A stretch of DNA of 64,000 nt from contig CAZGQR010000002.1 in the NCBI GenBank assembly GCA_964527765.1, forward strand, positions 50,986-114,985, given 5' to 3'. The DNA comes from an uncultured Planctomycetia bacterium. GTDB lineage: Bacteria > Omnitrophota > Gorgyraeia > Tantalellales > Tantalellaceae. The notes beneath the pieces are model-generated. The model made no database searches, had not been told where the DNA came from, and saw only the letters and a program-made list of their open reading frames with translations. Made by a program: the position numbers and the translations under genes. Shown here piece after piece: positions 29,811-58,579 of this stretch (the first letter of the stretch is position 1; every line of letters starts with the position of its first letter).

Positions 29811-29840
29811 ATAACGGATATTTTAAATCGGAGGTGTGAT

Positions 29841-30059
29841 ATGCCATTGGGAGATGGAACAGGCCCCCGCGGCCGGGGGCCGGGGACCGGAAGAGGTATG
29901 GGTAGAGGCGGCGGACGCGGACCCGGAGGAAGGCCGGGCGCCGGACCCGGCGGCAACTGTGTGTGCCCGAGCTGCGGAACAAAAGCTCCCCACAGGCCGG
30001 GAGTTCCCTGTGCTTCGATGAATTGTCCGAAATGCGGCGCGGGGATGGTAAGGGCATAG
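29841..30059 (+). CDS. Small Gly/Arg-rich protein with C-terminal CxxC...CxxC zinc ribbon (DUF5320-like N-terminus)
   Basis: [30 protein letters not shown]...[27 protein letters not shown]; GGAGG RBS upstream. Confidence 0.45.
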
Positions 30060-30062
30060 CAT

Positions 30063-30911: not shown

Positions 30912-30912
30912 A

Positions 30913-40833: not shown

Positions 40834-40851
40834 GTATAGTAAAGAGGCCAT

Positions 40852-41277: not shown

Positions 41278-41747
41278 CGCGCAAAGAGATCTTAAAGAAC
41301 ATACAGGAAAAGTTCAAGAAGGATATAATCGATGTTTTCGACAAGCATCCGAAACGGGTGTATATCGAGATCAAACCCGGATCGATAGTCAAGATCGCCG
41401 GTTATATGTTCAAAGAACTGGGCACAAGGTTCAATATAGCCACGGGGGTGGATCTAAGAGAGCATATGGAGATCCTGTACCATTTCACCGACGAGGATAT
41501 AAACCTGTTGATCTCCCTGAGGGTGAAACTGCCCAAGGATAAATTAGAGATAGATTCGCTTGCTCCTGTTTTCGAAGGCGCGAACTGGATAGAAAGGGAG
41601 ATGCACGAACTTCTGGGTATCACTTTTAAAGGGCATCCTGACATGAGAAGGCTGCTTCTGCCGGACGAATGGCCCGAGGGCGTGTATCCCTTGAGGGCCG
41701 ACTATGAGGAATGGGACGAAAAGGCGATAAGGGACAGGGGATTATAG
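41274..41747 (+). CDS. NuoC/MbhK-like 30 kDa subunit
   Basis: 157 aa; ...NWIEREMHELLGITFKGHPDMRRLLLPDEW is a Complex1_30kDa motif. Confidence 0.8.
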   Translation: MTRKEILKNIQEKFKKDIIDVFDKHPKRVYIEIKPGSIVKIAGYMFKELGTRFNIATGVDLREHMEILYHFTDEDINLLISLRVKLPKDKLEIDSLAPVFEGANWIEREMHELLGITFKGHPDMRRLLLPDEWPEGVYPLRADYEEWDEKAIRDRGL

Positions 41748-41750
41748 AAA

Positions 41751-42935: not shown

Positions 42936-43534
42936 ACGGCGAGATCAAGGTCCGCATACAGGAAATGTCCGGGATCATCTCCGAGATGATCGATCTCGTT
43001 TTCCGGGGCTTTATGGAAAATGATATGCATATTCTTGACAAGAGCCTGGACAAGGAACGCGCGCTCGACGATCTGGAAAAAGAGATCACCGCCGGTATCG
43101 TGAAACTTTCCAAAGGGCTCAGCGACAGGGAAAGAAAGAAGCTTGTTATAGCGGGGCAGATCGCCGAGAATATCGAGCGCATGGGCGATGAACTGCGCTA
43201 TCTGACCGAACGCATCGAGCTCAAGATCGCGGATAAGCTTTATTTCAGCGATAAAGGGGTCGAGCAGTATAAGGAAGTTTTTGAGAAGATGCAGAGGTCG
43301 GTGAGCCTGATCGTGAGGTTCCTGGGTGACGATGATGCCGAGGTCCTGGATAAGGTCCTGGAGAACGGCGACCAGATCAAGGAATTGATCGAAAGATACA
43401 GGGCCGAGCATATCGACCGTCTGGCCAGGGGGATATGCGAGCCGAGGGCGGCGAACATGTATTTTGACATGCTTGATTTTACCGGGAACATCGCCAGGCA
43501 CTGCACGAATATAGCGAGGATCTCCAAAAAATAA
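42932..43534 (+). CDS. PhoU-domain protein (two PhoU-like repeats)
   Basis: QIAENIERMGDELRYL and FTGNIARHCTNIARI resemble the paired PhoU E(D)-x3-D/ERIGD...HATNIA motifs. Confidence 0.45.
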   Translation: MNGEIKVRIQEMSGIISEMIDLVFRGFMENDMHILDKSLDKERALDDLEKEITAGIVKLSKGLSDRERKKLVIAGQIAENIERMGDELRYLTERIELKIADKLYFSDKGVEQYKEVFEKMQRSVSLIVRFLGDDDAEVLDKVLENGDQIKELIERYRAEHIDRLARGICEPRAANMYFDMLDFTGNIARHCTNIARISKK

Positions 43535-45186
43535 TGACAATACCCGAACTTTTCAGATTAGATAATTTGTCCGTTTTTGTAGGCATATTCATCGGTGTTT
43601 TCTCGCTGCTGGTCATCTTTTATTCTTTCGGCTTTATGCGCGGAAGAAAAGGGCTGGTGAGGTATTACCTGTATCTCGTTCTCACTTTTCTCGCCTCGCT
43701 CGGCACGGTCTTTTCCAATAACCTCATACTCTTTATTGTCTTCTGGGGATTTCTGGGGCTTCTTTTATACCTCCTGATCGGTTTCGGGCAGAGAGATGGT
43801 ACCGCTTATACGGCCAAGAAGGCGTTCATAATAATCGGGGGGACCGATGCCTTTATGCTGCTGGGGCTGGCTTTTATCTGGCATATTGCGGGAACGTTCC
43901 AGATGGATAAGATAAGCATTGCCCTGGATTCCAGGTCCGCGATCCTTGCGTACATATGCCTTGCGGCGGGAGCGTTCGCCAAGACCGGGGCGATGCCTTT
44001 TCATACCTGGGTTCCCGATACGGCCGAGGACGCGCCCACGCCGGTGGCTGCGTTCCTCCCGGCTTCCCTGGACAAGCTCCTGGGGATATATTTCCTTGCC
44101 AGGATATCCCTGGACATGTTCCGGATGAACCTGGGCATGAATACGTTCCTGATGGTAGTGGGCAGCGTCACTATCGTGGCCGCGGTCATGATGGCGCTCA
44201 TCCAGCATGATATGAAAAGGCTTCTGGGGTATCATGCGGTAAGTCAGGTCGGGTACATGGTCCTGGGTATCGGCACCGGCAACCCCGTCGGCATCGCGGG
44301 GGGAGTGTTCCACATGCTGAACAACGCGATATACAAGTCGTGCCTTTTTCTTTCCGGCGGCGCGGTGGAAAAAAAGGCGGGGACGACCGACCTGGAAAAA
44401 CTGGGCGGCTTTGCCAGGATCATGCCCATTAGTTTCCTGACGTTCCTGATAGCGTCGTTCTCGATATCGGGGGTTCCGCCCTTCAACGGGTTCGCTTCGA
44501 AGTGGATGATTTATCAGGGGGTGATAGAAACGGCCTCGGGTGGCGGACGGCTGTGGGTGGTATGGCTCGTTGCCGCCGTGTTCGGAAGCGCCCTGACGCT
44601 GGCGAGTTTCATGAAGCTTGTGCATACCGTGTTTCTCGGCCAGCCTTCCCGCGAGGCGCGCGAAAGAAGGTCCGAGATGAGGGATACCAGTCCTTCCATG
44701 CTGATCCCCTCGATGATACTTGCTTTCCTTTGCGTGATCTTCGGCGTTTTTGCTTACCGGATCCCTCTTAAGATGTTCATATTCCCGAGTCTGGGAGGAG
44801 AAGCGGGATTTACCGGCATATGGGATCCGTCCCTGGCCACGGCTCTGATAATCGTGGGTGTAGCGATAGGGTTGGTTATCTACCTGATCGGCACTGCTTT
44901 AAAGACGAGAACGACGGAAGTGTTCATCGGCGGAGAGATCCTGGAGAAGAAACCCGACATGAGGATTTCCGGGACCGAGTTTTATGAGACCATCAGGGAA
45001 ATGGGGTGCCTTAAGGCCATATACGCCCTGGCGGAGAAGAAAGTGTTTGATATATATGAAGTCGGCGTCAAGTTCACGCTTGCTTTTAACAGGGTATTGC
45101 GTTACATTCACAACGGAGTGCTCCTTACGTACCTGTCCTGGTGTCTTTTGGGGATGGTGATACTCTTTTACGTTCTGGTAAGGTGA
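43534..45186 (+). CDS. Mrp/complex-I antiporter-like subunit (MrpA/D, NuoL/M, MbhH-like proton-conducting membrane transporter)
   Basis: 550 aa, about 14 TM; HAVSQVGYMVLGIG and WVPDTAEDAPTPVAAFL (conserved Proton_antipo_M motifs). Confidence 0.8.
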   Translation: MTIPELFRLDNLSVFVGIFIGVFSLLVIFYSFGFMRGRKGLVRYYLYLVLTFLASLGTVFSNNLILFIVFWGFLGLLLYLLIGFGQRDGTAYTAKKAFIIIGGTDAFMLLGLAFIWHIAGTFQMDKISIALDSRSAILAYICLAAGAFAKTGAMPFHTWVPDTAEDAPTPVAAFLPASLDKLLGIYFLARISLDMFRMNLGMNTFLMVVGSVTIVAAVMMALIQHDMKRLLGYHAVSQVGYMVLGIGTGNPVGIAGGVFHMLNNAIYKSCLFLSGGAVEKKAGTTDLEKLGGFARIMPISFLTFLIASFSISGVPPFNGFASKWMIYQGVIETASGGGRLWVVWLVAAVFGSALTLASFMKLVHTVFLGQPSREARERRSEMRDTSPSMLIPSMILAFLCVIFGVFAYRIPLKMFIFPSLGGEAGFTGIWDPSLATALIIVGVAIGLVIYLIGTALKTRTTEVFIGGEILEKKPDMRISGTEFYETIREMGCLKAIYALAEKKVFDIYEVGVKFTLAFNRVLRYIHNGVLLTYLSWCLLGMVILFYVLVR

Positions 45187-45190
45187 TGAT

Positions 45191-45748
45191 ATGGTAGAGC
45201 TTTATGTATTGCTTGTTCTGATGATCATCGGCGCCTTGATCGCGATCGAGATAAAAGATCTGCTTTCCTCCGTGATAGCGGTGGGCGCCGCGGGGCTTGC
45301 GCTTTCGATAATCTTTTTGATACTTAAGGCGCCGGACGTGGCTATCACTCAGCTGGTCGTCGAGATATTGGCCCTGATCATACTGGTCAGGGGGACCCTC
45401 AAGAGGGATCTGCCTTTTTCAACGACGGGCAGGTGGCTTCTGAACACTATTATCACCGCGTGTTTTGTGGTCATATTTCTGGCGGTGGGGATGAAATGCT
45501 TTAAGGACCTGCCTGAATTCGGCTATCCGATAATGAAGGTCGCCGGTACCTATATCCAGGAAGGGCTCCAGAAGACAGGCGCCGTCAATCTTGTGGCTTC
45601 GGTGATACTGGACTTCAGGGCTTATGACACGCTCGGCGAGGCGACTATCCTTTTCACGGCTGTTATAGGTGTTCTGGCGATCGTGAGGAAGATAGGCAGG
45701 AAAAAGGTGGACGAAGAGATCAGGGAAGAAGACGAGGAAGAAATATGA
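45191..45748 (+). CDS. MnhB-related N-terminal domain protein (DUF4040; MbhD/E-like)
   Basis: Hydrophobic 185 aa; LSSVIAVGAAGLALSIIFLILKAPDVAITQLVVE pattern. Confidence 0.55.
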   Translation: MVELYVLLVLMIIGALIAIEIKDLLSSVIAVGAAGLALSIIFLILKAPDVAITQLVVEILALIILVRGTLKRDLPFSTTGRWLLNTIITACFVVIFLAVGMKCFKDLPEFGYPIMKVAGTYIQEGLQKTGAVNLVASVILDFRAYDTLGEATILFTAVIGVLAIVRKIGRKKVDEEIREEDEEEI

Positions 45749-46221
45749 GCAGGGAACGCGAAAAAGGCATGTCACTGATCGTGAAGACGATAACCCGCCT
45801 CACGGTAGGGCTTATATTTCTTTACGGGGTTTACATAGTGACTCACGGGCATCTTTCGCCCGGCGGCGGTTTTGCCGGCGGGGTGATCATAGCGCTGTCG
45901 TTCGTCCACCTCATGCTGGCGTACGGCAAGGAAAAGGCTTTTGAGAAGCTCTCGAGGGCCGCCGCTTCGCTGTTTGAGGATGCCGGGGCGATACTTTTCC
46001 TGAGTATCGCTCTTCTGGGGTTTACCGGGGGCTATTTCTTTCTTAACTTCATATCCAAAGGTCAGCCTTTTAAGCTGTTCAGCGCGGGGATCATCCTGCC
46101 CTGCAACATAGCCATAAGCCTGAAGGTCGGCGCCGGGATCTTTGCGATAGTCGTTGCGCTTGTTCTCTTGGAGTTTGAACTGGAAGAAGAGAAAAAGGAA
46201 GAGAAAAAAGGAAAAAGATGA
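45745..46221 (+). CDS. Na+/H+ antiporter MnhB-subunit-like protein
   Basis: TRLTVGLIFLYGVYIVTHGHLSPGGGFAGGVIIA is characteristic of the MnhB domain. Confidence 0.7.
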   Translation: MSREREKGMSLIVKTITRLTVGLIFLYGVYIVTHGHLSPGGGFAGGVIIALSFVHLMLAYGKEKAFEKLSRAAASLFEDAGAILFLSIALLGFTGGYFFLNFISKGQPFKLFSAGIILPCNIAISLKVGAGIFAIVVALVLLEFELEEEKKEEKKGKR

Positions 46222-46556
46222 GCATCTATCTGCTTTGCCTGATAATTTTTAGTCTGGGCATTTACTGCGTCGTACGGAAACGTAACGTCATCAAGATCAT
46301 AATAGGCGTCATCATACTGGAATACGCGGTCAACCTGTTCTTTGTGCTTGTGGCTTACCGTGTTAACGGCCGCGCTCCGATATTTTCGGCGGAGCAGGAA
46401 GTGCTGAACATGGTGGACCCGCTGCCGCACGCGCTGGTGCTTACCGCGATCGTTATCGGGCTGGCGACCACCGCTCTGCTTGTGGGGATCGCCATGCGAC
46501 TTTATGAAAAATACAGGACTTTTGATATCACGAAGATAAGGGAGCTAAAGGGATGA
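46218..46556 (+). CDS. MnhC/NuoK-like subunit
   Basis: 112 aa, 3 TM, in the NuoK/MrpC size class. Confidence 0.65.
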   Translation: MSIYLLCLIIFSLGIYCVVRKRNVIKIIIGVIILEYAVNLFFVLVAYRVNGRAPIFSAEQEVLNMVDPLPHALVLTAIVIGLATTALLVGIAMRLYEKYRTFDITKIRELKG

Positions 46557-48058
46557 TGCCGGCAGAGAACATAATACCGCTTTTTGTCGCCGTAGCGCTT
46601 GCCGGGGCCTTTATTGTCGCTCTTGCAGGCGGGAAGGTGAGGTGGGCGCCCGACGCGCTGGGGAACCTCTTCACGCTGGCCCTGACGGTCTTATCCGTCG
46701 TATCGGTGCTGGCGGTAAGGCAGTACGGGGTTCTTGTCTACAGCGTCGGCGCGTGGAAGCCTCCCGTGGGCATAGCGATGGTGCTGGACGGCTTGACCTC
46801 GTTCATGCTGGTGACCGTGAACCTGATGGCGTTTATCATAACCGTTTTTTCGGTGAATTACATGGAGAAATACACCTCCAAATGGAAATTCTATTGCCTG
46901 TTCCTGCTGATGGTGGCGGGCATGAACGGCGTCATTATAAGCGGTGACATGTTCAATCTGTTCGTGTTCCTGGAGATCGCTTCCGTCGCGAGTTACGCCC
47001 TGGTCGCGTTCGGGACGGAACGCCAGGAGCTTGAAGCGGCTTTTAAATACGCGGTCATGGGCACCGTGGGATCGCTTTTCACTCTTCTCGGCATCGTCTT
47101 TCTGTACAGTTATACCTCTACGCTTAACATGGCGGACATGGCGCAGGTCCTGATCCAGAAAGGTGGGAAGGACATCACTCTCATGGTGAGCGTCTTGTTC
47201 ATAATGGGGTTCGGCCTGAAGGCGGCGCTCGTTCCGTTCCACGCCTGGCTTCCGGATGCCCATCCTTCGGCTCCCGCGCCGATATCGGCCATGCTCTCGG
47301 GTGTGTTGATAAAATCACTCGGTATCTACGCCCTGTGCAGGGTATTCTACAACGTGATCGGCATAGACCAGGCCGTTTCTTCCGTGCTGCTTTTCCTTGG
47401 CGCTTTGTCCATGGTGGTCGGGGTGTTCCTGGCCATAGGCCAATGGGATTTCAAACGCCTTCTGGCGTATCACTCCATAAGCCAGATAGGCTATGTTGTT
47501 CTCGGGATCGGACTGGGGACCCCGCTCGGCATCCTGGGCGGCCTCTTCCATCTTTTTAATCATTCCGTGTTCAAATCGCTGCTCTTTTTGAATTCCGGGG
47601 CCGTGGAATATTCGACCGGGACGCGCGACCTGAAGGAGATGGGAGGACTGGCATCAAAGATGCCGCTGACAGGAACGACAAGCCTTATAGCTTCGATGTC
47701 CATCGCCGGGATCCCGCCTTTCAACGGGTTCTGGAGCAAGCTGATCATAATAATAGCGGCGGTTCAGGCCGGCAGGTACGGGTACGCGTTCTGGGCCGTT
47801 GTAGCAAGCGTGCTGACCCTGGCGTCCTTCATGAAGGTCATGAAGTACGCCTTTCTGGACAGGCTGAAGGAAAAATGGAACGCGGTGAAAGAAGTGCCCG
47901 TTTTCATGAAGTTGTCCATGAGTGCCCTGGCGCTTATTTGCATTCTGGGAGGGGTCTTACTTGTCGGAGCCCTTAATGATGCTTTTCTTGAACGGGCGAC
48001 CGATGTTCTTCTGGAGGGGACAAAGTACGCGGCCATTGTTTTTAAGGGGATCGGGTAA
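46553..48058 (+). CDS. MrpD/NuoN-like antiporter-type subunit
   Basis: 501 aa; HAWLPDAHPSAPAPISAML and HSISQIGYVVLGIG motifs. Confidence 0.8.
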   Translation: MMPAENIIPLFVAVALAGAFIVALAGGKVRWAPDALGNLFTLALTVLSVVSVLAVRQYGVLVYSVGAWKPPVGIAMVLDGLTSFMLVTVNLMAFIITVFSVNYMEKYTSKWKFYCLFLLMVAGMNGVIISGDMFNLFVFLEIASVASYALVAFGTERQELEAAFKYAVMGTVGSLFTLLGIVFLYSYTSTLNMADMAQVLIQKGGKDITLMVSVLFIMGFGLKAALVPFHAWLPDAHPSAPAPISAMLSGVLIKSLGIYALCRVFYNVIGIDQAVSSVLLFLGALSMVVGVFLAIGQWDFKRLLAYHSISQIGYVVLGIGLGTPLGILGGLFHLFNHSVFKSLLFLNSGAVEYSTGTRDLKEMGGLASKMPLTGTTSLIASMSIAGIPPFNGFWSKLIIIIAAVQAGRYGYAFWAVVASVLTLASFMKVMKYAFLDRLKEKWNAVKEVPVFMKLSMSALALICILGGVLLVGALNDAFLERATDVLLEGTKYAAIVFKGIG

Positions 48059-48059
48059 A

Positions 48060-48557
48060 ATGAAAAGCAGAATAGTTTTATTTGTCCTGGCGTATTTAAT
48101 CTGGTGTTTCTTGAACTGGGTGCCGGACTGGCAGCATCTCCTGGTCGGGGTCTTTGCGGCGTTTCTTGTCGCGTTTCTGACCGGCGATCTTTTCATGACC
48201 AGGCCGCGGATCCTGAAGAACCCCCGGCGCTACTGGTATTTTATGGCGCAATACATACCCAGATTTTTATGGGAATGTTTCAAGGCGAACATCGACGTGG
48301 CATACCGTGTTATTCACCCGAAACTCCCCATAAATCCGGGGATCGTCAAGGTCAAGACGAAATTAAAAACGGATACGGCCCTTACGTTCCTGGCCAATTC
48401 GATAACGCTTACGCCGGGGACCATGAGCGTGGATATAGACAGGGAAAAAGGGGTCCTGTACATACACTGGATCAATGTGAAAGAGACGGACGTTGAGGCC
48501 GCGACCGAGGCCATTGTCGGAAGGTTTGAGAGGATACTCGCAAGGATTTTTGAATAA
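48060..48557 (+). CDS. MnhE (MrpE)-like subunit
   Basis: MKSRIVLFVLAYLIWCFLNWVPDWQHLLVGVFAAFLVAFLTG is the typical MnhE N-terminus; the track ORF starts earlier (47922) in the same frame. Confidence 0.65.
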   Translation: MKSRIVLFVLAYLIWCFLNWVPDWQHLLVGVFAAFLVAFLTGDLFMTRPRILKNPRRYWYFMAQYIPRFLWECFKANIDVAYRVIHPKLPINPGIVKVKTKLKTDTALTFLANSITLTPGTMSVDIDREKGVLYIHWINVKETDVEAATEAIVGRFERILARIFE

Positions 48558-48568
48558 AGGAATGACGA

Positions 48569-48939
48569 ACATGAAAATAATAAGATGGTTTTTAGGGGCG
48601 GTTGTTTTGATAGTCATCATCGCCATGGTCGTCGTAAGGCCGTTTCCTTTTCTTTTTTATCCCGATCTTCCTTATATAGGCGTTCTCGGCAGGGCCATGT
48701 ACATACTTGTCCTGGCGTGCGCCTTGTGCCTTTACCGGGTGTTCATGGGGCCCACAGGCGCCGACCGGATCGTAGCTATCGATATATTCGGTATCATGAT
48801 AATCGGTTTCTGCGCGGTGCTTACCATTTCGACCGGCAGATCATGGTACATAGATATAGGGATAGCCTGGGCACTGCAGAGTTTCATAGCCACGCTCGCG
48901 CTTTCAAAATATCTGGAAGGAAAGGGTTTCGATGAGTGA
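48569..48939 (+). CDS. MnhF (MrpF)-like subunit
   Basis: MKIIRWFLGAVVLIVIIAMVV... 3 TM; its position between the mnhE-like and mnhG-like genes supports the call. Confidence 0.55.
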
Positions 48940-49928: not shown

Positions 49929-50411
49929 ATGAAGAATAATATGCCGGAAGTGTCTAAAATTCTTTCGAAAGTGTTTAAAGGCAGGACCGTTATCGTCGGC
50001 ATGGGCAACGTTCTCAAGGGGGACGATGCTTTCGGTCCGAGGCTGGTCGAAAGGCTGAAGGGCGATGCAAAAGCCGTGTGCATAGACGCGGGAAGCGCAC
50101 CTGAGAATTATACGGGCAAGATAATAAAGGAAAGACCCGAGACGATCATTATCGCCGATGCGGTACATCTGGGGCTGAAGCCCGGGGAGTGCGACGTTTT
50201 AAGAAAAGACGATATCGTCAGGAGCGGATTTACGACGCATGATATTTCTCCGGTCATGTTCATCGAATATCTGGAAAACCAAACGGGAGCGGATATTTAT
50301 ATGCTGGCTGTCCAGCCGGAGACTGTCGGCTTTGGAGAAGAGATGTCCGACAGCGTTAAAAAGGCGCTTGAGGAGATCTCTGTACTGATAAAGGAGGCGC
50401 AAGATGCATGA
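49929..50411 (+). CDS. hycI: Hydrogenase maturation endopeptidase (HycI/HybD family)
   Basis: VIVGMGNVLKGDDAFGPRLVERL...IDAG...IIADAV are the canonical motifs. Confidence 0.85.
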   Translation: MKNNMPEVSKILSKVFKGRTVIVGMGNVLKGDDAFGPRLVERLKGDAKAVCIDAGSAPENYTGKIIKERPETIIIADAVHLGLKPGECDVLRKDDIVRSGFTTHDISPVMFIEYLENQTGADIYMLAVQPETVGFGEEMSDSVKKALEEISVLIKEAQDA

Positions 50412-50646
50412 AACACATTTGATAGAGCCCGTGATAAAGGGCATATCCGAGCATGCCCGGAAAGAAGGAGCAGGATCGGTGAGCAAGGTCAGGCTGAAAG
50501 TAGGGGCCCTTACCTGCGTCAGGGAGGACTCCTTCAGGGAGACTTTCAGTGTCCTGGCGAAGGGGACCGTTCTCGAGAATGCGGAACTGGAGATCACGTT
50601 CTTCCCGGGCTCGAGGGTCGAAGTGGTGTCGTTCGATATTGATTAG
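50404..50646 (+). CDS. HypA-like N-terminal (nickel-binding) domain protein lacking the zinc-finger domain
   Basis: 80 aa; starts MHETHLIEPVI... like the MHE Ni site of HypA, but no CxxC...CxxC follows. Confidence 0.4.
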   Translation: MHETHLIEPVIKGISEHARKEGAGSVSKVRLKVGALTCVREDSFRETFSVLAKGTVLENAELEITFFPGSRVEVVSFDID

Positions 50647-50654
50647 ATCACTGA

Positions 50655-50722
50655 TGTTCGAATTGTTTTCGGGAACCATGCCCGCTCGGTCGTTCGACGT
50701 CCCGCTCGAAACAATTCAAACA
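50655..50722. repeat. Long imperfect inverted repeat (16-17 bp arms, about 35-nt spacer)
   Basis: TGTTCGAATTGTTTTCG ... CGAAACAATTCAAACA, in the 100-nt gap between the hypA-like and hypF-like genes. Confidence 0.5.
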
Positions 50723-50746
50723 TCAACAAACGAATAAATAAATATT

Positions 50747-51826
50747 ATGAACAGGACAATACTCGCGCTCGGCGCGGACATAAAGAACAGATCTCTTCTG
50801 GGAAGAGGGCGGGAACTGCGCTTCGGACCCGATATAGGGGACCTGAGCGATGCCGCGAACTATGAAAGGTTCCGGAAGGAAGCGGCGCTTCTGGCGAAGA
50901 GAGCCGGCACCAGGCCGGGTATCGTCGCCTGTGACCTTCACCCGGGATATTTCTCGGCCAGGTTCGCGAAGGACGGCCGGAAATGGTTCGCTAAAAATTA
51001 CAGGACCGTTCCTGTCCAGCATCACCACGCGCACGTAGCGAGCGTGATGCAGGAATACGGCCTGGAAGGTCCTGTCATAGGCGTGTCTTTTGACGGGACG
51101 GGTTACGGGACGGACGGGAACATATGGGGCGGTGAGTTCCTCATTGTCGATAAAGCCGGGTTTAAAAGGGCGGGTCATCTCAGGTACCGCATGATGCCCG
51201 GAGGCGACAGGGTGGTCTCCGAACCGTGGAGGATGGTACTGAGCATACTGGGGGAAAAGGGAGCCGGTTTGATCAAAAAGGTGGATCGAAAGAATAAAGA
51301 TCTTGTCCTGGCAATGATGTCAGGGAATATAAACTCACCGCTGACTTCAAGCGCGGGACGCCTTTTTGATGCCGCTGCCGCACTTCTGGGTGTATGTGAA
51401 TACGCCTCGCGCGAAGCGGAAGGCCCCGTAAAGCTTGAATCCATGTGTGAAGGAAACGTAGAGGAAAGTTACGGATTTGAGATATTAAAAGATGATGACC
51501 GCGATGTAATAGATACCGGGGGTTTGTTCCTGGGGATGGCCGCTGATATGAAAAAAGGTAAAGACAAGGGAGTTATAGCCGCCAGGTTCCACAATTCCAT
51601 GGCTGAAGTTATCGTTAAGACGGCCGGGAGGATATCGAAACGTTCCGGCATCATGGATATCGCGCTGAGCGGTGGGGTCTTTCAGAACGATCTCTTAAGG
51701 ACCGGGGTCATGAAAAGATTGGGCCGTTCGGGTTTCAAGGTGTTCATCAACAGTTCCATCCCTGTCAACGACCTGAACATAGCATTGGGGCAGTATTATG
51801 TGTCTGGCAATTCCTGCAAGAGTTGA
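50747..51826 (+). CDS. hypF: HypF C-terminal (Kae1/YgjD-like carbamoyl-transfer) domain protein; the acylphosphatase, Zn-finger and YrdC parts of canonical HypF are absent
   Basis: 359 aa; ILALGADIKN... and IALSGGVFQNDLL match the HypF C-terminal domain; canonical HypF is about 750 aa. Confidence 0.6.
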   Translation: MNRTILALGADIKNRSLLGRGRELRFGPDIGDLSDAANYERFRKEAALLAKRAGTRPGIVACDLHPGYFSARFAKDGRKWFAKNYRTVPVQHHHAHVASVMQEYGLEGPVIGVSFDGTGYGTDGNIWGGEFLIVDKAGFKRAGHLRYRMMPGGDRVVSEPWRMVLSILGEKGAGLIKKVDRKNKDLVLAMMSGNINSPLTSSAGRLFDAAAALLGVCEYASREAEGPVKLESMCEGNVEESYGFEILKDDDRDVIDTGGLFLGMAADMKKGKDKGVIAARFHNSMAEVIVKTAGRISKRSGIMDIALSGGVFQNDLLRTGVMKRLGRSGFKVFINSSIPVNDLNIALGQYYVSGNSCKS

Positions 51827-52055
51827 GAGTATCGAAAAGAGCGCTGCCGTCGTGGATTTCGGCGGCGTGCGTAAAAAGATCTCGCTTGGGGTCCTGAGCG
51901 GCGTGAAAAAGGGAGATCATGTCCTGGTCCATGCCGGGTTCGCGATAGGAAAAGTAGAGAGGGAAGAGGCGGAGGACACGCTGAAAGTATTGCGGGAGCT
52001 GAAGGAGGCGGTGAGAGAAGAAAGCGGCATGGCGGGGACAGGCCCTTTTAACTGA
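51798..52055 (+). CDS. hypC: Hydrogenase assembly chaperone HypC
   Basis: MCLAIPARV..., N-terminal Cys2, 85 aa. Confidence 0.85.
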   Translation: MCLAIPARVESIEKSAAVVDFGGVRKKISLGVLSGVKKGDHVLVHAGFAIGKVEREEAEDTLKVLRELKEAVREESGMAGTGPFN

Positions 52056-52056
52056 T

Positions 52057-53067
52057 ATGAAGAAGATAAAGCTGATGGAAGTATGCGGGACGCATACAAT
52101 GGCGATCGCGAAGGCGGGTATCAAAAAACTCCTTCCCGAGGGAATAGAGCTCATCTCCGGTCCGGGTTGCCCCGTATGCGTGACCTCCCAGGAAGATATC
52201 GACAGGGCGATAAAGATCGCCGGCGTGAAGGATGTCATCATGGCTACCTTCGGCGACATGATGCGGGTGCCGGGAAGCCTGGGGAGCCTCGAGGATATTA
52301 AAAGACGCGGTGCGGATGTGCGGATCGTGTACTCATGCATCGATGCGCTGGATATGGCAGAAAAGAACCCTTCCAAAAAAGTCGTTTTCATGGGGGTCGG
52401 TTTTGAGACGACCTCTCCCACCGTGGCGGCGACCGTGATAGAGGCAAAAAGGCGGAAGGCGCGGAATTTTTTCGTCCTGTCGGATTTCAAGCTTATTTTC
52501 CCGGCTCTTGAGGCTATCGCCGGGTCCGGCAGGGTCGGGGTGGACGGCTTTTTGTGCCCGGGGCATGTCAGTGTCATCACGGGGAGCGTTCCTTATGAAA
52601 GAATAGCGAAGCGCTACGGGAAGGCCTGCGTTATAACAGGGTTTGACGATGCTGATATTATAAAGGGAATAAAGCGCCTCGTCGACCAGATACAGAGAAA
52701 CGAGAGCGAGGTCGAGATCGAGTACAGAAGGGCTGTCGGCAAAGAAGGCAATGTTACCGCAAAGAAGGTCTTGCGCGCGGTGTTCAAACCGGGCCCGGCG
52801 CGGTGGAGAGGGCTTGGGAAGATAGAAAAAAGCGGCCTTAAGTTAAGGAAAACATATGAGAGGTTCGATGCCGAGAAAGAATTTAAGATCAAAATCCCCA
52901 GACCGAAGCCGCATAAGGGCTGCATATGCGGGGATGTTCTCCAGGGGATAAAGTCGCCTGTTGACTGCAAACTGTTCGGGAAAAAATGTGACCCCCGCAG
53001 TCCCGTGGGGCCCTGCATGGTTTCCTCGGAAGGCACTTGCGCGGCATATTTTAAGTACGGGGCATAG
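52057..53067 (+). CDS. hypD: Hydrogenase formation protein HypD
   Basis: CGTHT, GPGCPVCV and FETT motifs; 336 aa. Confidence 0.9.
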   Translation: MKKIKLMEVCGTHTMAIAKAGIKKLLPEGIELISGPGCPVCVTSQEDIDRAIKIAGVKDVIMATFGDMMRVPGSLGSLEDIKRRGADVRIVYSCIDALDMAEKNPSKKVVFMGVGFETTSPTVAATVIEAKRRKARNFFVLSDFKLIFPALEAIAGSGRVGVDGFLCPGHVSVITGSVPYERIAKRYGKACVITGFDDADIIKGIKRLVDQIQRNESEVEIEYRRAVGKEGNVTAKKVLRAVFKPGPARWRGLGKIEKSGLKLRKTYERFDAEKEFKIKIPRPKPHKGCICGDVLQGIKSPVDCKLFGKKCDPRSPVGPCMVSSEGTCAAYFKYGA

Positions 53068-53068
53068 T

Positions 53069-54061
53069 ATGGCACACAAAAATATAACCCTGGCTCACGG
53101 CAACGGCGGCAGGCTCATGCACGAGCTTATTGACGTGTTCCGTTCGAAGTTCTCGAACAGGATACTGGATGAATTATCGGATGCCGCCGAGATCCGTTTG
53201 CGGGAAGACCGGCTGGCCTTCAGCACGGATTCGTTCGTGGTAAAACCCCTGTTTTTCCCCGGCGGCGATATAGGTAAACTCGCCGTTCATGGCACGGTAA
53301 ACGATATATCCATGAAAGGCGCAAAGCCGCTGTTCATCTCTCTTGCCTTAATTCTCGAGGAGGGACTTGAGCTTTCCGTGCTTGAGAGAATAGTCTCTTC
53401 CATAAAACAAGCTTCCCGTAAAGCCGGGGTCAAGGTCGTTACGGGCGATATAAAGGTCGTTGAAAAAGGCGCCGCCGATAAGATCTTCATAAATACTTCC
53501 GGTATAGGCGTTATCGGTCATTCCGGGAAAAGTGTAGGTTCCAGGGCGCGAAAGGGCGATTCTGTCGTGATCAACGGCGGGATAGCCGAGCACGGGATGG
53601 CGATCCTGAATGCCAGGGAGGGTCTGGGTTTTGAATCCGGTATAAGAAGCGATTGCCGCAACCTGAACTTTGAAGTTGAGAGGTGCCTTAAGGCGTCAAG
53701 GAATATAAGTGTCATGCGCGACCCTACAAGAGGGGGGCTTGCCACGGCGCTGAACGAGATAGCGTCCGCCTCAAATCTTGGCATAGAGATCCACGAAAAG
53801 GATATACCGGTCAAGCCGGGGGTAAAAAGATTGTGTGATGTTCTGGGGCTTGACCCCCTGTACATCGCCAATGAGGGAAAATTCGTCTGTTTTGTCAAAG
53901 AAAAGGACGCGCCGAAGATAGAGCGCTCGATGGGTCGGGGCGCCCGGATCATAGGAAAAGTCACTTCCGCCCACAAAAAAGAGGTCCGTCTGCGGACACG
54001 GATCGGTTCAAGCCGTATCCTGCCGGCCCTGGAATCGGATCAACTCCCCCGCATCTGCTGA
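53069..54061 (+). CDS. hypE: Hydrogenase maturation protein HypE
   Basis: MAHKNITLAHGNGG...; PurM-like fold; ends in the conserved ...PRIC; the track ORF (52961) begins earlier in frame. Confidence 0.85.
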   Translation: MAHKNITLAHGNGGRLMHELIDVFRSKFSNRILDELSDAAEIRLREDRLAFSTDSFVVKPLFFPGGDIGKLAVHGTVNDISMKGAKPLFISLALILEEGLELSVLERIVSSIKQASRKAGVKVVTGDIKVVEKGAADKIFINTSGIGVIGHSGKSVGSRARKGDSVVINGGIAEHGMAILNAREGLGFESGIRSDCRNLNFEVERCLKASRNISVMRDPTRGGLATALNEIASASNLGIEIHEKDIPVKPGVKRLCDVLGLDPLYIANEGKFVCFVKEKDAPKIERSMGRGARIIGKVTSAHKKEVRLRTRIGSSRILPALESDQLPRIC

Positions 54062-54075
54062 TATCGAAAAAAGCT

Positions 54076-54121
54076 TGACGTCGGGCAACAACTGTGTTAC
54101 GATTTTGAAAATCGTAACACA
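54076..54121 (+). promoter_or_regulatory. Promoter (TTGACG-17-TACGAT) overlapped by a perfect 27-bp palindrome, a candidate NikR operator
   Basis: GTGTTACGATTTT-G-AAAATCGTAACAC at 54095-54121 overlaps the -10, directly upstream of the nikR GTG start at 54134. The half-site GTAACAC/TAACACG recurs twice, at 54569-54576 and 54588-54596, upstream of the porin gene. Confidence 0.55.
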
Positions 54122-54133
54122 AGGAGATCCAAA

Positions 54134-54550
54134 GTGGCGGAATTAATGCGTTTCGGCGTATCGCTGGAAAAAGACCTTCTTGATAAGTTTGACAGGATTA
54201 TCAGGATCGAAAATTATTCCAACCGTTCCGAAGCCATCCGCGACCTGATAAGGGAAAAGCTTGTCAGGAAAGAGTGGAAGGGAAAAGCCGAGGTAGCCGG
54301 AGCCGTTATCCTCGTTTATGATCATCACAAAAGGGACCTTTTGAATTCTCTCGTGGATATCCAGCACGACTTTCATCACCTGATCATCGCCAACCAGCAT
54401 GTTCACCTGGACCATCACAATTGTCTTGAGATCATTGTGGTCAAGGGAAAGCCCGGAGAGATCGAAAAACTTGCCCACAAATTAAAATCCGCCAAGGGGG
54501 TCAAACACGGCCAGCTTACGGCGGCTACGACAGGAAAAGAACTGGCATAA
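54134..54550 (+). CDS. nikR: Nickel-responsive regulator NikR (ribbon-helix-helix + ACT-like metal-binding domain)
   Basis: VSLEKDLLDKFDRIIRIENYSNRSEAIRDLIRE is an RHH region; the C-terminus has HHLIIANQHVHLDHHNC with His/Cys Ni ligands. Confidence 0.85.
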   Translation: MAELMRFGVSLEKDLLDKFDRIIRIENYSNRSEAIRDLIREKLVRKEWKGKAEVAGAVILVYDHHKRDLLNSLVDIQHDFHHLIIANQHVHLDHHNCLEIIVVKGKPGEIEKLAHKLKSAKGVKHGQLTAATTGKELA

Positions 54551-54622
54551 AAATTTTTTTGAGATGCAATAACACGAATATGGTATTTGTAACACGGATA
54601 AAAAAGTAAGGAGGAGAAAGAG

Positions 54623-56047
54623 ATGTTTTTCAGGAAAGCCGTTACGGTTATCGGCGCGACGAGCATGTTTTTATTTTTTTGTATCTCTGCCTTCGGGGCG
54701 GATGTGCCGTCGAATGCGGAACTTCTCAAGGAACTCAGAGAGATGCGAAAAATAATAAAAAAGCAGGATGAAAGGATCGCGGTGCTGGAAAAACAGCTGC
54801 AGGAACAAAGTAAAGCGGTGGAAGAACAGCAAAGTGCGAGTGACGCCCGTAAGCGGGAAATGGACCTTTTACACGGCAAAGTCGCGGAAACGCAAAAGGC
54901 CCTGGCGGTGAGGGAAGCGGCGCCGGCGGACGCGCGCAAGGAAGAGCTGGACCGCTTGCGCGGCGTAGCGGAAGCCTTCGAGGGACTCATTATCAACGCG
55001 GGGATAACCGCTGTCGGGCAGGGCACGCCGGACGCCAATAACGCCGGCGGAGGGGAAGACTCCAGATTCGACGGGTCGTACTCGGTGGATGTTGAACTTG
55101 AGAAACAGTTCGACGATTATGGGCTGGCATTTATTCATCTGGAAGCCGGCCAGGGCGATACCATAGAAGGGGACCTGGCGGTTTTCAGCAATGTCAATAG
55201 GGACGCCGGGGATTCAAACGCGCATGTCGACGTGACGGAAGCCTGGTACGAGCACTTTCTGTTTGACAGGCAGGTGATAATCACGGGCGGGAAACTTGAC
55301 GCCTCGGGCTTTATCGATACCAACGAGTACGCGAACGATGAGTGTTCGCAGTTCCTCGGGCGCATGTTCAGGAATTCCGACGCGATCGATTGGCCTGACG
55401 ATAATGCCCTGGGCGGGCGGATAATGCTTGCCCCGGAAATGCTGAAGGCCTTTGAGCTTGATGCCGTTTACATGGACGAGGACGGCGACTGGGAGGAGAT
55501 ATTCAACAAACCGTTTGCCGGCGTTCAGCTTAATTTCATGCCGGCCAGGGCGTTTGACTACGACGAGGATATGTGGGGAGGCAACTACCGCGTGTACTTC
55601 TGGTATAACGGGGCGGACCATACCAAGTGGAAAGACGCCGAAAAGACGAAGGAGACCAACTGCGGCGTCGGCCTGAGCTGTGACCAGATGCTTACGGAAG
55701 TTTTCGGCCTGTTTGGCCGGTTCGGATGGCAGAATCCCGAAGTGAGCGTTCTGGAATATCACTGGTCCGTCGGCGGGCAGATGACCGGTCAATATTGGAA
55801 CAGGGAAAGGGATGTTGTCGCCGTGGCTGTGGGGCAGGCGATCCCCGGCAAGGAATACGGCGATGCCGGTAATCCTCATGACAACGAAACACACCTCGAA
55901 GCTTACTACGCTTATAAAGTGAATGACCATCTTACCCTGTCTCCCGATATGCAGTTTATCTGGGATCCCAACGGCGTGGGAAACAGCGCCGACGGCGACA
56001 ACGATTGTATATTTGTATATGGCGTAAGAGGCCAGGTCGATTTTTAA
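54623..56047 (+). CDS. Outer-membrane beta-barrel protein (porin-like) with N-terminal signal peptide and coiled-coil segment
   Basis: Signal peptide MFFRKAVTVIGATSMFLFFCISAFGA; a coiled-coil of about 100 aa; alternating beta-strand pattern; a C-terminal ...YGVRGQVDF with a terminal Phe (beta-signal). Confidence 0.55.
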   Translation: MFFRKAVTVIGATSMFLFFCISAFGADVPSNAELLKELREMRKIIKKQDERIAVLEKQLQEQSKAVEEQQSASDARKREMDLLHGKVAETQKALAVREAAPADARKEELDRLRGVAEAFEGLIINAGITAVGQGTPDANNAGGGEDSRFDGSYSVDVELEKQFDDYGLAFIHLEAGQGDTIEGDLAVFSNVNRDAGDSNAHVDVTEAWYEHFLFDRQVIITGGKLDASGFIDTNEYANDECSQFLGRMFRNSDAIDWPDDNALGGRIMLAPEMLKAFELDAVYMDEDGDWEEIFNKPFAGVQLNFMPARAFDYDEDMWGGNYRVYFWYNGADHTKWKDAEKTKETNCGVGLSCDQMLTEVFGLFGRFGWQNPEVSVLEYHWSVGGQMTGQYWNRERDVVAVAVGQAIPGKEYGDAGNPHDNETHLEAYYAYKVNDHLTLSPDMQFIWDPNGVGNSADGDNDCIFVYGVRGQVDF

Positions 56048-56061
56048 AAAAGGGGGGAAAG

Positions 56062-56697
56062 ATGCATATACCGGATGGTTTTTTGACCGCCAGCACATGG
56101 GTGCCCGCCTGGGTCCTGTCCGCAGGCGGTATCGGGTATTGCCTGAGAAAGACGGGGGAGATACTTAGAGACAGGATGATCCCCTTGATGGGGGTCATGG
56201 CGGCTTTTATTTTCGCGGCGCAGATGCTTAACTTTCCCGTAGTCGGGGGCACGTCCGGCCATCTGCTGGGGGGAGTACTGGCCGCGGTTCTGCTCGGGCC
56301 GTATGCCGGAGCTCTCGTGATAACAGTGGTTTTGATCGTCCAGTGTTTTGTTTTTCAGGACGGGGGAGTGACGGCGTTGGGCGCCAACGTATTTAATATG
56401 GCTATTGTCGGAGCTATGGGGGGATATTTTCTCTACGGTTTTCTAAGGCGGGGCATAAAGGGCACTGCCGGTCTTATTGTGGGGGCCGGTGTTGCCGCAT
56501 GGGCGTCCGTGGTCGTTGCTTCGATCGTTTGCGCGGTTGAACTTGCCTTATCGGGTACCTCGCCGATAAGGATCGCGTTGCCGGCCATGGCGGGTATCCA
56601 CGCGCTCATAGGTATAGGAGAAGCGATCATAACCTGCCTGGTCGTGTCGTTCGTCGCGAAGGTAAGGCCCGACCTGATATATAAGATCGCAGAATGA
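56062..56697 (+). CDS. cbiM: ECF-transporter substrate-capture component CbiM/NikM (Ni/Co)
   Basis: N-terminus MHIPDGFL, with the conserved Met1-His2 metal-binding start; about 6 TM. Confidence 0.85.
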   Translation: MHIPDGFLTASTWVPAWVLSAGGIGYCLRKTGEILRDRMIPLMGVMAAFIFAAQMLNFPVVGGTSGHLLGGVLAAVLLGPYAGALVITVVLIVQCFVFQDGGVTALGANVFNMAIVGAMGGYFLYGFLRRGIKGTAGLIVGAGVAAWASVVVASIVCAVELALSGTSPIRIALPAMAGIHALIGIGEAIITCLVVSFVAKVRPDLIYKIAE

Positions 56698-56753
56698 GAT
56701 CATGTAAACCCCGCCGGAGAGGCCTGCCTTCCCCGGCGGGGCAAGAAGGAGAG

Positions 56754-57047
56754 ATGACGATGAAAAAGAAGGAAATATTTTTCGGTATCCTGGCAGCGCT
56801 TTTTTTGGCCGTAATGCTTTCTCCGTTCGCTTCTCCCTGGCCGGACGGTCTGGAAAAAGTTGCCGAGGATAAAGGGTTCCTGGAAAAGGGCGAGGGCGAG
56901 CCCCTTCTTATTTCGCCCGTTCCCGATTATGTCTGGCCGAAACTGGAAAACGAAAAGGTCGCTACAGCGGTCGCCGGCGCGGCCGGAACGCTGATCACGT
57001 TCGGAGGAGGCATTGCCCTGGCGGCCCTTATCAAACGGCGGGGCTGA
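56754..57047 (+). CDS. PDGLE-domain small membrane protein (CbiN/NikL-like auxiliary component)
   Basis: MTMKKKEIFFGILAALFLAVMLSPFASPWPDGLEKV contains the PDGLE motif; a TM helix lies at each end. Confidence 0.7.
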   Translation: MTMKKKEIFFGILAALFLAVMLSPFASPWPDGLEKVAEDKGFLEKGEGEPLLISPVPDYVWPKLENEKVATAVAGAAGTLITFGGGIALAALIKRRG

Positions 57048-57822
57048 TACATTGCGGCATCATTTTATAGACGAATACAGTGACGGGGGAAGTTTCATTC
57101 ACCGGCTGGACCCGAGAGCGAAACTCGCGGGCCTTCTCATGTTCATATTATTCGTGATAAGCACGCCCCCGGACTCTTTTATCTGTTTCGCGCTTTACGG
57201 CGCGCTTATCTGCGGCTTGATCTTGCTATCCGGCATACCTCCGGCGTTTATGATCAAAAGATCCCTGTGCATATTCCCGTTCGTGTTTCTGGTCGCCATG
57301 TTCATTCCTTTTTTCAGGGAAGGGGAGATCGTCTGGACGGGATCTTTCGGCCCGATGCATCTTGCGGTTACGCGCGACGGCCTGATGGTCTTTTGGAACG
57401 TTCTTTCCAAGGGATACCTGAGCGTTCTGTGCCTGATCCTCCTTATGAGCAGCACCGGGTTCGTTGACCTTTTAAAGGGGATGGAAAGATTAAAGCTGCC
57501 GGGACTTTTTATCATGATACTTTCGTTCATGTATCGCTATATTTTTCTGGTGGAAGATGAATTGATGATCATGAAACGGGCAAAAGATTCCCGGTCGACA
57601 GGAGGGTCGAGGTGGTTTCACATAAGGGCCCTGGCCAATATAATAGGGGTACTGTTCATAAAAAGCTATGAAAGAGCGGAAAACGTTTATCTTGCCATGT
57701 GCTCGAGAGGATTTAACGGCTGTGTGAATACTTTGAACGTTTTCCGGTTAAGGGCCGGCGATTGGGGTTTTCTGGTTACCCTGGCCGGCGTGTTGGCGGG
57801 GATCCGCTTTGCATGGGGATAA
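57013..57822 (+). CDS. cbiQ: ECF transporter transmembrane (T) component CbiQ
   Basis: HRLDPRAKL... and overall CbiQ topology. The start is uncertain: the track ORF overlaps the upstream gene, and a later start near 57052 is possible. Confidence 0.75.
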   Translation: MPWRPLSNGGADTLRHHFIDEYSDGGSFIHRLDPRAKLAGLLMFILFVISTPPDSFICFALYGALICGLILLSGIPPAFMIKRSLCIFPFVFLVAMFIPFFREGEIVWTGSFGPMHLAVTRDGLMVFWNVLSKGYLSVLCLILLMSSTGFVDLLKGMERLKLPGLFIMILSFMYRYIFLVEDELMIMKRAKDSRSTGGSRWFHIRALANIIGVLFIKSYERAENVYLAMCSRGFNGCVNTLNVFRLRAGDWGFLVTLAGVLAGIRFAWG

Positions 57823-58579
57823 GATGCGCAAAAAAGTCATCAAGATCAGGGAATTAAGTTATAAGTATCCCGACGGGACAAGGGCGCTGGATAATGTTGA
57901 CATGGATGTCTTCGAAGGCGATTCTGTCGGGATCATTGGCCCCAACGGGGCGGGGAAATCCACGCTCCTGTTCCATCTCAACGGTATTTTGGAGGGACAA
58001 GGGCGGATCAGCATAATGGGCATGGAAATAGAGAAACAGAACCTGGCTTATATCAGGAGCAAGGTGGGGCTGGTTTTTCAGAATCCGGATGACCAATTGT
58101 TCATGCCCACGGTTTTTGATGACGTGGCGTTCGGTCCGATCAACATGAAATTGACAGAGGATCAGGTCAGGGAGACGGCCAGTAAGGCCCTGTCGGATGT
58201 GGACATGTCAGATGCCGCCGGACGCTCCTCACATCATCTGAGTTTCGGAGAAAAGAAAAGGGTCTCATTGGCGACAGTTCTGTCCATGCATCCGGAAATA
58301 TTGGCTTTGGACGAGCCCACCAGCAATCTGGACCCAAGACACAGGCGGGAATTGATAAGCCTTCTTAGGCAGCTGCCTCTCACAAAGGTGATCACGACCC
58401 ACGACCTGGAACTGGTCGTGGACACATGTTCGAGGGTCGCGTTGATGGACGGCGGAAGAGTGGTCGCCTCGGGCGCAACCAGGGACATGCTTGCAAATAA
58501 GCACCTGCTTGAATCTCATCATCTTGAAGTTCCGGCTTCACTTCTGCGCGAACGATCGTACCTTAACTCCCGAATATAA
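57809..58579 (+). CDS. cbiO: ECF transporter ATPase CbiO
   Basis: Walker A GPNGAGKST, signature LSFGEKKRVSLA, Walker B ILALDEPT. Confidence 0.85.
   Translation: MHGDKMRKKVIKIRELSYKYPDGTRALDNVDMDVFEGDSVGIIGPNGAGKSTLLFHLNGILEGQGRISIMGMEIEKQNLAYIRSKVGLVFQNPDDQLFMPTVFDDVAFGPINMKLTEDQVRETASKALSDVDMSDAAGRSSHHLSFGEKKRVSLATVLSMHPEILALDEPTSNLDPRHRRELISLLRQLPLTKVITTHDLELVVDTCSRVALMDGGRVVASGATRDMLANKHLLESHHLEVPASLLRERSYLNSRI

Follow-up and report, generated by a model that had tools for sequence, protein, structure and literature searches.

General organization of the nik locus

Examination of a 64,000-nt stretch of DNA from an uncultured Omnitrophota bacterium (assembly GCA_964527765.1, contig CAZGQR010000002.1, positions 50,986-114,985 of the forward strand), hereafter called the window and numbered from its first nucleotide, revealed a predicted nickel-uptake operon in which a gene for an OprB-family porin is inserted between the gene of the regulator NikR and those of an energy-coupling factor (ECF) transporter. 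The six genes follow one another in the order nikR, porin, nikM, nikN (PDGLE), nikQ and nikO, directly 3' of hyp genes and a group-4 [NiFe] hydrogenase. Two conserved DNA sites accompany them, O1 in front of nikR and O2 between nikR and the porin gene. Gene order, gene families, metal ligand residues and both sites can be read from the nucleotide sequence, and the barrel fold of the porin is predicted by a structural model. NikR, its operator and the ECF transporter are of ordinary kinds that have been described before; what the analysis adds is the phylum-wide presence of an OprB-type porin in NikR operons and a conserved second site built as a direct repeat.

A preliminary description of this DNA had listed the palindrome, the extra half-sites and the six genes, and all of these sequence features were recovered in our analysis. 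Its interpretation was retained in part: the NikR regulon, the beta-barrel, the transporter and the link to a hydrogenase stand as predictions, and the notions of a metal-specific channel and of an unusual coiled coil do not.

Gene families were assigned with Pfam and NCBIfam. Related loci were collected in two ways. The porin alignment, used to scan a single genome of each species, provided 80 loci from Omnitrophota metagenome-assembled genomes (MAGs), and a second, unbiased sample, picked from metagenomes by NikR alone, provided 54 non-redundant loci. The total locus sequence scanned for DNA sites amounted to 853 kb.

NikR and the predicted operator O1

The first gene, nikR (54134..54550, + strand), has a GTG start and encodes a 138-amino acid protein with a ribbon-helix-helix (RHH) domain and a nickel-binding, ACT-like NikR_C domain (Pfam RHH_1 and NikR_C, E = 2.1e-32; NCBIfam NF003381, 192 bits for a cut-off of 105). 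Its closest relative of solved structure is the NikR of P. horikoshii (2BJ1, 150 bits). The high-affinity square-planar nickel site of NikR is formed by three histidines and one cysteine (His3Cys; PMC11672702), and in the alignment with 2BJ1 the corresponding QH, HVH and C positions are conserved (DIQHDF...QHVHLDHHNC). By these motifs the protein is a member of the family of nickel-responsive RHH repressors, and its binding to the operator is predicted.

A consensus scan located a sigma-70-like nikR promoter at 54075..54103 (+ strand), composed of a -35 box TTGACG (54075-54080), a 17-nt spacer and a -10 box TACGAT (54098-54103) with an upstream TG. Operator O1 (54093..54121) is a 29-bp perfect palindrome, TGTGTTACGATTTT-G-AAAATCGTAACACA, whose 14-nt arms are 100% complementary and whose core GTGTTAC-N13-GTAACAC occupies positions 54094-54120. 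Since the promoter extends from 54075 to 54103, the left arm of O1 covers the -10 box TACGAT, 31 nt before the GTG start; an overlap with the -10 box had been noticed at the outset. The exact 27-bp core is found once in the window and did not arise in any of 100 dinucleotide-preserving shuffles.

A NikR box of the form GTGTTAC-[N13/14]-GTAACAC was derived in 2004 from the regions upstream of delta-proteobacterial nikMNQO operons (PMC545781), and the core of O1 agrees letter for letter with this consensus. A degenerate form of the site (GTGYTAC-N13-GTARCAC, at most two mismatches) was found in 37 of the 44 evaluable nikR loci, about 25-45 nt before the nikR start, and a near-consensus TTGACA box lies 13 nt 5' of the left half-site in about 40 related loci. 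When the strict motif GTGTTAC-N13-GTAACAC was searched with at most two mismatches, 38 sites were obtained over all loci, nearly all of them before nikR, compared with a background of about 2e-5 per position. In the window, a search for further NikR sites with at most two mismatches in four half-site arrangements returned none besides O1 and O2. The palindrome had already been proposed as the operator of NikR; its match to the published type and its retention 5' of nikR in related loci support the prediction that O1 is a NikR operator, of a type described before.

A second site behind nikR

Site O2 (54569..54595, + strand) consists of two half-sites, ATAACAC (54569-54575) and GTAACAC (54589-54595), separated by N13 and forming a direct repeat; its centre is located about 41 nt 5' of the porin ATG. 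The half-sites are 20 bp apart from start to start, as are the arms of O1, but they have the same orientation. Both had been reported ahead of the porin gene, and we found them within 1 nt of the positions originally given. The extended pattern RTARCACGA-N11-GTARCAC matches the window at O2 only, for a chance expectation of 0. Over the 853 kb of loci, GTARCAC-N13-GTARCAC with at most one mismatch occurs 26 times, at least 20 of them directly 5' of a porin gene, and solely beside nikR or nik genes. With at most two mismatches O2 is found in 31 of the 46 loci having nikR upstream of the porin gene.

Alignments of the junction revealed a further, highly conserved element, (G)TATTAT-T7 (54547-54560, T7 at 54554..54560, + strand), which abuts the nikR stop codon and ends 8 nt before O2. 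The T7 run precedes every O2, mostly as TATTATTTTTTT and at the same distance of 8 nt; it is itself preceded by TATTAT in most relatives, and it is kept also where the site is of the inverted type. The element resembles a -10 box without a -35 partner. Between nikR and the porin gene the consensus scan detected neither a promoter nor a terminator, and a TTGACA box 16-18 nt 5' of the conserved TATTAT was not enriched over control offsets.

The loci selected by NikR alone inform on the gene to which O2 belongs. Among these 54 loci, the gene next to nikR encodes the porin in 16, NikM in 18 and another protein in 20, and a direct-type O2 is present in 21, including cases in which nikM directly follows nikR (L084, L124, L128). 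This is at odds with the earlier idea of a second site specific to the porin. Moreover, O2 stays beside nikR in L026 and L034 despite the insertion of rfaD and hypA before the porin gene. In L035, a locus without nikR, TTGACA-O1 and T8-O2 stand in tandem directly before porin-nikM (6860-6985), about 50 bp from centre to centre, an arrangement that suggests the excision of a nikR gene formerly located between O1 and O2. By this distribution among loci, O2 is a feature of the nikR junction and not of the porin.

Whether O2 is read by NikR is less straightforward. A symmetric NikR tetramer is expected to favour inverted half-sites, so that a direct repeat is odd. This orientation, together with the constant association of O2 with TATTAT-T7 and with a fixed CGA, which are possible promoter features, would also fit a promoter or UP-like element, or the target of another factor resembling NikR half-sites. 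Such an origin of O2 seems rather unlikely to us: the site reuses the 7-mer of O1 with the exact N13 spacing, other lineages carry an inverted NikR-type box (e.g. GTGTTAC-N13-ATAACAT) at the same position behind the same T-run, and the element is confined to nikR and nik neighbourhoods. Because the ends of GTnnnAC are palindromic, a two-fold-symmetric RHH dimer could read GTAACAC both ways, and it is plausible that the dimer accepts the 7-mer in either orientation. Everted arrangements of NikR half-sites were predicted earlier in D. psychrophila (PMC545781).

Two other explanations of the junction were discarded. An alternative register of O2, centred on an inner palindrome ACGAAT...ATTCGT, is encountered in few loci (e.g. 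L095) and is not general. An RNA element is not indicated either: Rfam searches of the window and of those relatives whose intergenic regions are long detected no riboswitch, and a GC-rich insert of some relatives, which yields no more than a 7-bp hairpin, is absent from the window.

This insert is an element of about 95 nt just 3' of the post-nikR site in 12 loci (nhmmer E-values from 1e-25 to 8e-12; L065:6838-6942, L066, L069, L074, L058, L110, L120/121, L136/139, L150/152). It carries a CCCCGCC...GGCGGGG hairpin, in whose 7-bp stem one pair is compensatory, and a conserved motif, CCAAGCCCRGCCATAAGTATACCATAA, and it corresponds to no Rfam family. In L054, L061 and L064, an open reading frame (ORF) of about 50 codons (...NYGEVVITIHNSKI.QIEK.EKKRF) lies between the post-nikR site and the porin gene; its product presumably resembles YezD/DUF2292 proteins.

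The OprB-family porin

The gene following nikR (54623..56047, + strand) encodes a 474-amino acid protein with a signal peptide (residues ~1-25), a coiled coil (~31-113) and a barrel (122-473). Its N-terminus is signal peptide-like (MFFRK...AFG|AD) and its C-terminus (...RGQVDF) ends in phenylalanine. Residues 154-474 match the Pfam family OprB (PF04966, E = 1.7e-30, 107 bits for a cut-off of 22.9). The AlphaFold2 model (mean predicted local distance difference test score of 79) contains helices at 31-97 and 103-113, then 16 strands between residues 122 and 473. The best Foldseek match of this model is the OprB of P. putida (4GEY, E = 8e-21, target-normalised TM score 0.69); the stalked porin OmpM1 is among the further matches, and DcaP is found lower in the list. 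As a search of the PDB with the porin profile gave marginal OprB matches only (E = 0.014), the match to OprB structures was established by the fold search. No TonB-receptor domain was detected by Pfam, and in place of a plug the model has the N-terminal coiled coil. The initial prediction of a secreted beta-barrel ending in phenylalanine is thus borne out at the level of a model: structural modelling, proposed at that time as a way to reveal a non-barrel or periplasmic protein, predicted an outer-membrane barrel of 16 strands.

The barrel contains 64 aspartate and glutamate residues for 22 lysine and arginine residues, which gives a net charge of about -42 and an isoelectric point of 4.15. A composition this acidic fits a cation-selective pore.

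A database search retrieved 359 homologues, nearly all from MAGs of Candidatus Omnitrophota; they are named 'carbohydrate porin', and some records of the Joint Genome Institute (JGI) bear the name 'high affinity Mn2+ porin'. Several paralogues may be present in one genome (three in JAVCDB01, two in JBDRAX01). All 40 aligned members share the same architecture: a signal peptide, a coiled coil of about 70-90 residues and an OprB barrel ending in ...RGQVDF. The coiled coil, which had been called unusual, is therefore a family trait, present also in relatives linked to iron-uptake genes, and OmpM1 and DcaP appear among the fold matches.

Linkage of the porin to metal-uptake genes

The porin gene has nikR as a neighbour in 46 of the 80 loci, where nikR nearly always directly precedes it and otherwise lies within 2.5 kb, and in most of these 46 loci nikM is immediately downstream. 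The synteny hypE-nikR-porin is found in L015, L018, L027 and L042 as well, and in L021 hypE directly precedes the porin gene without nikR. The importer placed after the porin varies. It can be of the NikM+PDGLE+Q+O type, 70-80% identical to that of the window, a fused NikM-PDGLE protein (about 45%) or a third type of NikM (about 38%); in L024, L045 and L057 (also L012), nikM is replaced by a gene for a DsbD_2-type membrane protein of 235-250 amino acids with a His-rich loop (HKHIHSH...HSHGHSH), which may be a secondary nickel permease. The retention of the porin while the importer is exchanged provides good evidence, of a comparative kind, for a functional tie between the porin and nickel uptake.

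This linkage bears on the possibility that the protein is a general or structural porin, serving the diffusion of carbohydrates or other solutes or anchoring by means of its coiled coil, and that its position among nik genes has no meaning for transport. Its database name, the glucose porin OprB as nearest fold, the structural matches to OmpM1 (an outer membrane attachment porin) and DcaP, and the multiple paralogues per genome would agree with such a role. We nevertheless judge it very improbable: 51 of the 78 porins of a phylogenetic tree are flanked by Nik-type genes only (nikR, nikM or the His-rich permease) and 19 by dtxR or feoB only, although the type of importer varies; conserved NikR-type sites lie directly 5' of the porin gene even where nikR is absent; and the porin gene and nikM are nearly contiguous.

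L058 has both kinds of flanking genes, and some other porins of the tree lie beside fur. The iron-type context consists of a DtxR-family repressor, (feoA), feoB and the porin, and was seen in L001-L003, L030, L044, L047, L049, L052, L053, L056, L058, L072, L077 and others, which suggests that dtxR-feoAB-porin loci are for iron what the nikR-porin loci are for nickel. In L001-L003, genes for a small secreted protein and then a DUF4198 periplasmic protein stand between feoB and the porin gene. The window also contains, at 28111-31770 (+ strand), a cluster coding for a Fur-family regulator, a small Gly/Arg-rich protein, two small NifX/NifB-like proteins and two Fe-S ATPases resembling MinD/Mrp; this fur-led cluster also adjoins porin paralogues in L004, L011, L014 and L019.

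Nickel specificity of the porin

The preliminary description had proposed a channel dedicated to nickel and cobalt. A porin acting as a high-affinity Ni2+ (or Ni/Co) channel, and representing a new class of nickel porins, would be in keeping with the tight phylum-wide order nikR-porin-nik, maintained with several different nickel importers, with the predicted NikR sites in front of the porin gene, with the MnoP precedent of a metal-selective porin-type channel (as cited in PMC6011978) and with the 'high affinity Mn2+ porin' label that JGI gave to several homologues. The relationships within the family point elsewhere. In the neighbour-joining (NJ) tree of the 78 porins, nik-linked and feo-linked members are thoroughly interleaved, which is suggestive rather than final because the tree was built from simple distances and carries no bootstrap support. 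The porin of the window is 63-67% identical to the feoB-linked porins of L001 and L002, its nearest relatives, and 53% identical to that of the syntenic nik locus L018. When mutual information was scanned column by column, no column of the barrel separated nik-linked from feo-linked porins beyond a permutation null; only residues 34-35, in the N-terminal coiled coil, exceeded it. Net charge and His/Cys content did not differ between the two groups.

A nickel-specific subfamily of porins was rejected on the strength of the interleaved tree, the mutual-information scan and the equal charge and His/Cys content. Nickel specificity of the porin in the window is accordingly not supported by these comparisons, and we regard a dedicated channel as unlikely. 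The simplest reading, suggested by the same comparisons, is a family of acidic divalent-cation porins, copies of which have been wired to whichever regulon they serve. The name divalent-cation porin would suit the protein best because its paralogues attach either to NikR/Nik or to DtxR/FeoAB genes.

The predicted NikMNQO transporter

The gene nikM (56062..56697, + strand) starts 14 nt after the porin stop codon, with its own Shine-Dalgarno sequence and no predicted terminator in between; it encodes the component for substrate capture, a protein of 211 amino acids beginning with MHIPDGFL (Pfam CbiM, E = 5.5e-66). The nikN-like PDGLE gene (56754..57047, + strand) belongs to an ORF that opens at 56694; translation probably begins at ATG 56754 or 56760, which GGAGAG precedes, for a product of about 95-97 amino acids that compares with 93-97 in homologues and contains a literal WPDGLE (Pfam E = 6.7e-17). 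The T component gene nikQ/cbiQ (57013..57822, + strand), of uncertain exact start, was recognised by Pfam CbiQ and TIGR02454 (161 bits for a cut-off of 112), and the ATPase gene nikO/cbiO (57809..58579, + strand), starting at TTG 57809 or ATG 57824, by Pfam ABC_tran and ECF ATPase models. The succession of porin, nikM, PDGLE gene, cbiQ and cbiO given in the preliminary description was confirmed by these assignments.

In TtNikM2 the nickel ligands are Met1-His2 and His67, and Co2+ is another ion that the NikM/CbiM site can accept (PMC3945884). The NikM of the window has Met1-His2 and His67, and Q94, GG101-102 and N109 also align with TtNikM2, which is the best relative of solved structure (4M58, 100 bits, versus 51 bits for R. 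capsulatus CbiM). By itself this site does not discriminate between nickel and cobalt. Its ability to accommodate cobalt, and the names of the best NCBIfam models for the M, N and O components (cobalt transporter CbiM, CbiN and CbiO), could speak for a cobalt importer of the CbiMNQO type. All of these matches remain below the curated cut-offs, however, and the higher score with TtNikM2 also argues against cobalt import, which we consider hardly credible. The assignment to nickel rather than cobalt is favoured by genomic context, because NikR and NikR boxes head the locus, hyp and [NiFe] hydrogenase genes flank it, and Rfam detected neither a cobalamin nor any other riboswitch in the window.

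Hydrogenase genes and other features of the window

The group-4 membrane-bound [NiFe] hydrogenase, which has Mrp-like subunits, is encoded at 39910..48939 (+ strand; Pfam). Its large subunit (41751-42935) keeps both Ni-ligand CxxC motifs (RICGIC and DPCYCC). The hydrogenase genes are followed by a hyp region (49929..54061, + strand; Pfam and ORF list) that contains genes for a HycI-like protease, a short HypA, the C-terminal half of HypF, HypC, HypD and HypE. The hydrogenase to which nickel uptake had been related is thus genuine, with hyp genes adjacent to it.

Two of the Hyp proteins are incomplete. HypA (50404-50646) has 80 amino acids and retains the N-terminal MHE; as only positions 1-69 of the 112 of the Pfam HypA model are matched, its zinc-finger part is missing. 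HypF (50747-51826) is limited to the Kae1-like C-terminal half, of 359 amino acids. No hypB was seen between the hydrogenase and nikR with Pfam and the ORF list.

Elsewhere in the window, a tRNA gene with a group I intron is found at 21129-21540 (+ strand), where Rfam RF00028 matches positions 21260-21493 with 71 bits. ARAGORN with default settings reported no tRNA there; with introns allowed, it predicted a tRNA-Asn(GTT) with a 336-nt intron at position 36. The 3' exon comprises the T-arm and an encoded CCA, and is followed by a hairpin and a T-run.

Proposed functioning of the operon

Taken together, these data make it probable that the locus is a nickel-uptake operon whose porin is induced by metal limitation and acts as a strongly acidic divalent-cation porin, a counterpart of the Mn2+ channel MnoP. 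When nickel is plentiful, Ni-NikR would bind O1 and occlude the -10 box, and the operon would be off, as the type of operator and its conservation imply. O2 would most likely offer NikR a second grip on the uptake genes, either by repression of an internal promoter or by acting as a roadblock, both of which are possible. When nickel is scarce, the operon would be derepressed, and the porin and NikMNQO would be made. The porin, which is probably trimeric by virtue of its periplasmic coiled coil, would let hydrated Ni2+ diffuse into the periplasm, where NikM would capture it at Met1-His2/His67 for ATP-dependent import driven by the Q/O module. The imported nickel would then go to the Hyp machinery and the neighbouring hydrogenase.

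Several of the observations reported above weigh against this model. They are the same orientation of the O2 half-sites, the negative promoter, terminator and TTGACA scans at the junction, the 'cobalt' names of the NCBIfam models, the close feoB-linked relatives of the porin and its unsupported nickel specificity; in addition, we infer both the regulation and the function of the operon throughout from sequence.

A bolder version, in which porin-type channels tuned to Ni2+ (they would be the first nickel porins) are combined with a NikR that reads a direct-repeat operator, appears doubtful. If true, recognition of a direct repeat would be a binding mode not expected for the symmetric NikR tetramer.

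To our knowledge, the entry of nickel through the outer membrane has been explained in a few TonB-dependent systems only, and porin routes have been assumed without genes. The present loci provide a concrete, phylum-wide candidate for the porin route of nickel, with sister paralogues in DtxR/FeoAB iron loci. Moreover, the natural pairing of a palindromic and a direct-repeat NikR site offers a handle on how strictly NikR reads the orientation of its half-sites. Full-text searches for a NikR-linked OprB porin or for nickel porins of Omnitrophota were negative, although Rodionov et al. 2006 and Benanti & Chivers 2010 (on the NikR of G. uraniireducens) may hold an earlier mention of a porin linked to NikR or of a NikR site that is not palindromic.

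Comparison with known systems

The OprB of P. putida (4GEY/4GF4) belongs to the same Pfam family as the porin of the window and is its best fold match, but it is a sugar channel and shares 16% identity with it. The context of the OprB-family gene is here one of metal uptake and not of carbohydrate or sugar catabolism. OmpM1 (Veillonella) and DcaP (Acinetobacter) carry N-terminal coiled coils, and OmpM1 also carries an SLH domain. In both, as in the window porin, the coiled coil is periplasmic and precedes the barrel; unlike in OmpM1, no SLH domain was detected by Pfam in the porin of the window.

TonB-dependent transporters are energised, 22-strand barrels with a plug. The porin described here, modelled as a passive 16-strand barrel that lacks a plug, is on this ground unrelated to those of Helicobacter. 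It is comparable with FrpB4 and FecA3 of Helicobacter pylori, which are NikR-repressed TonB-dependent outer-membrane transporters as cited in PMC11247825, in that an outer-membrane protein for nickel entry is placed, by prediction in our case, under the control of NikR.

In Geobacter sulfurreducens, an OprB-family porin with a predicted Fur box lies upstream of feoAB (PMC545781). Like the porin of the window, it is a PF04966 protein beside an inner-membrane metal importer and behind the box of a metal regulator, and the dtxR-feoAB-porin paralogues found in this study are arranged on the same principle. The Geobacter case concerns iron and a single genome, with the porin gene before the regulator; the present one concerns nickel and a whole phylum, with the porin gene after the regulator.

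The closest known operons are the delta-proteobacterial NikR-nik(MN)QO operons, in which the same operator is found and nikR adjoins an ECF-type NikMNQO transporter near hydrogenase genes (PMC545781). The locus of the window differs from them by the porin gene between nikR and nikM, by the presence of two predicted operators (O1 and the direct-repeat O2) and by its Omnitrophota host.

For the porin itself, a functional parallel is provided by the outer-membrane Mn2+ channel of Bradyrhizobium japonicum, MnoP (blr0095; Hohle et al. 2011, as cited in PMC6011978). The likeness, which is one of description, lies in a porin-type channel for a divalent metal that is independent of TonB and paired with an inner-membrane importer, a role that is predicted here. 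MnoP is controlled by Mur. In the operon described here NikR and nickel stand where Mur and manganese stand for MnoP, and at the level of prediction an MnoP-type arrangement, with O1 and O2 upstream of the porin gene and nikM 14 nt downstream, is conserved in 46 of the 80 loci.

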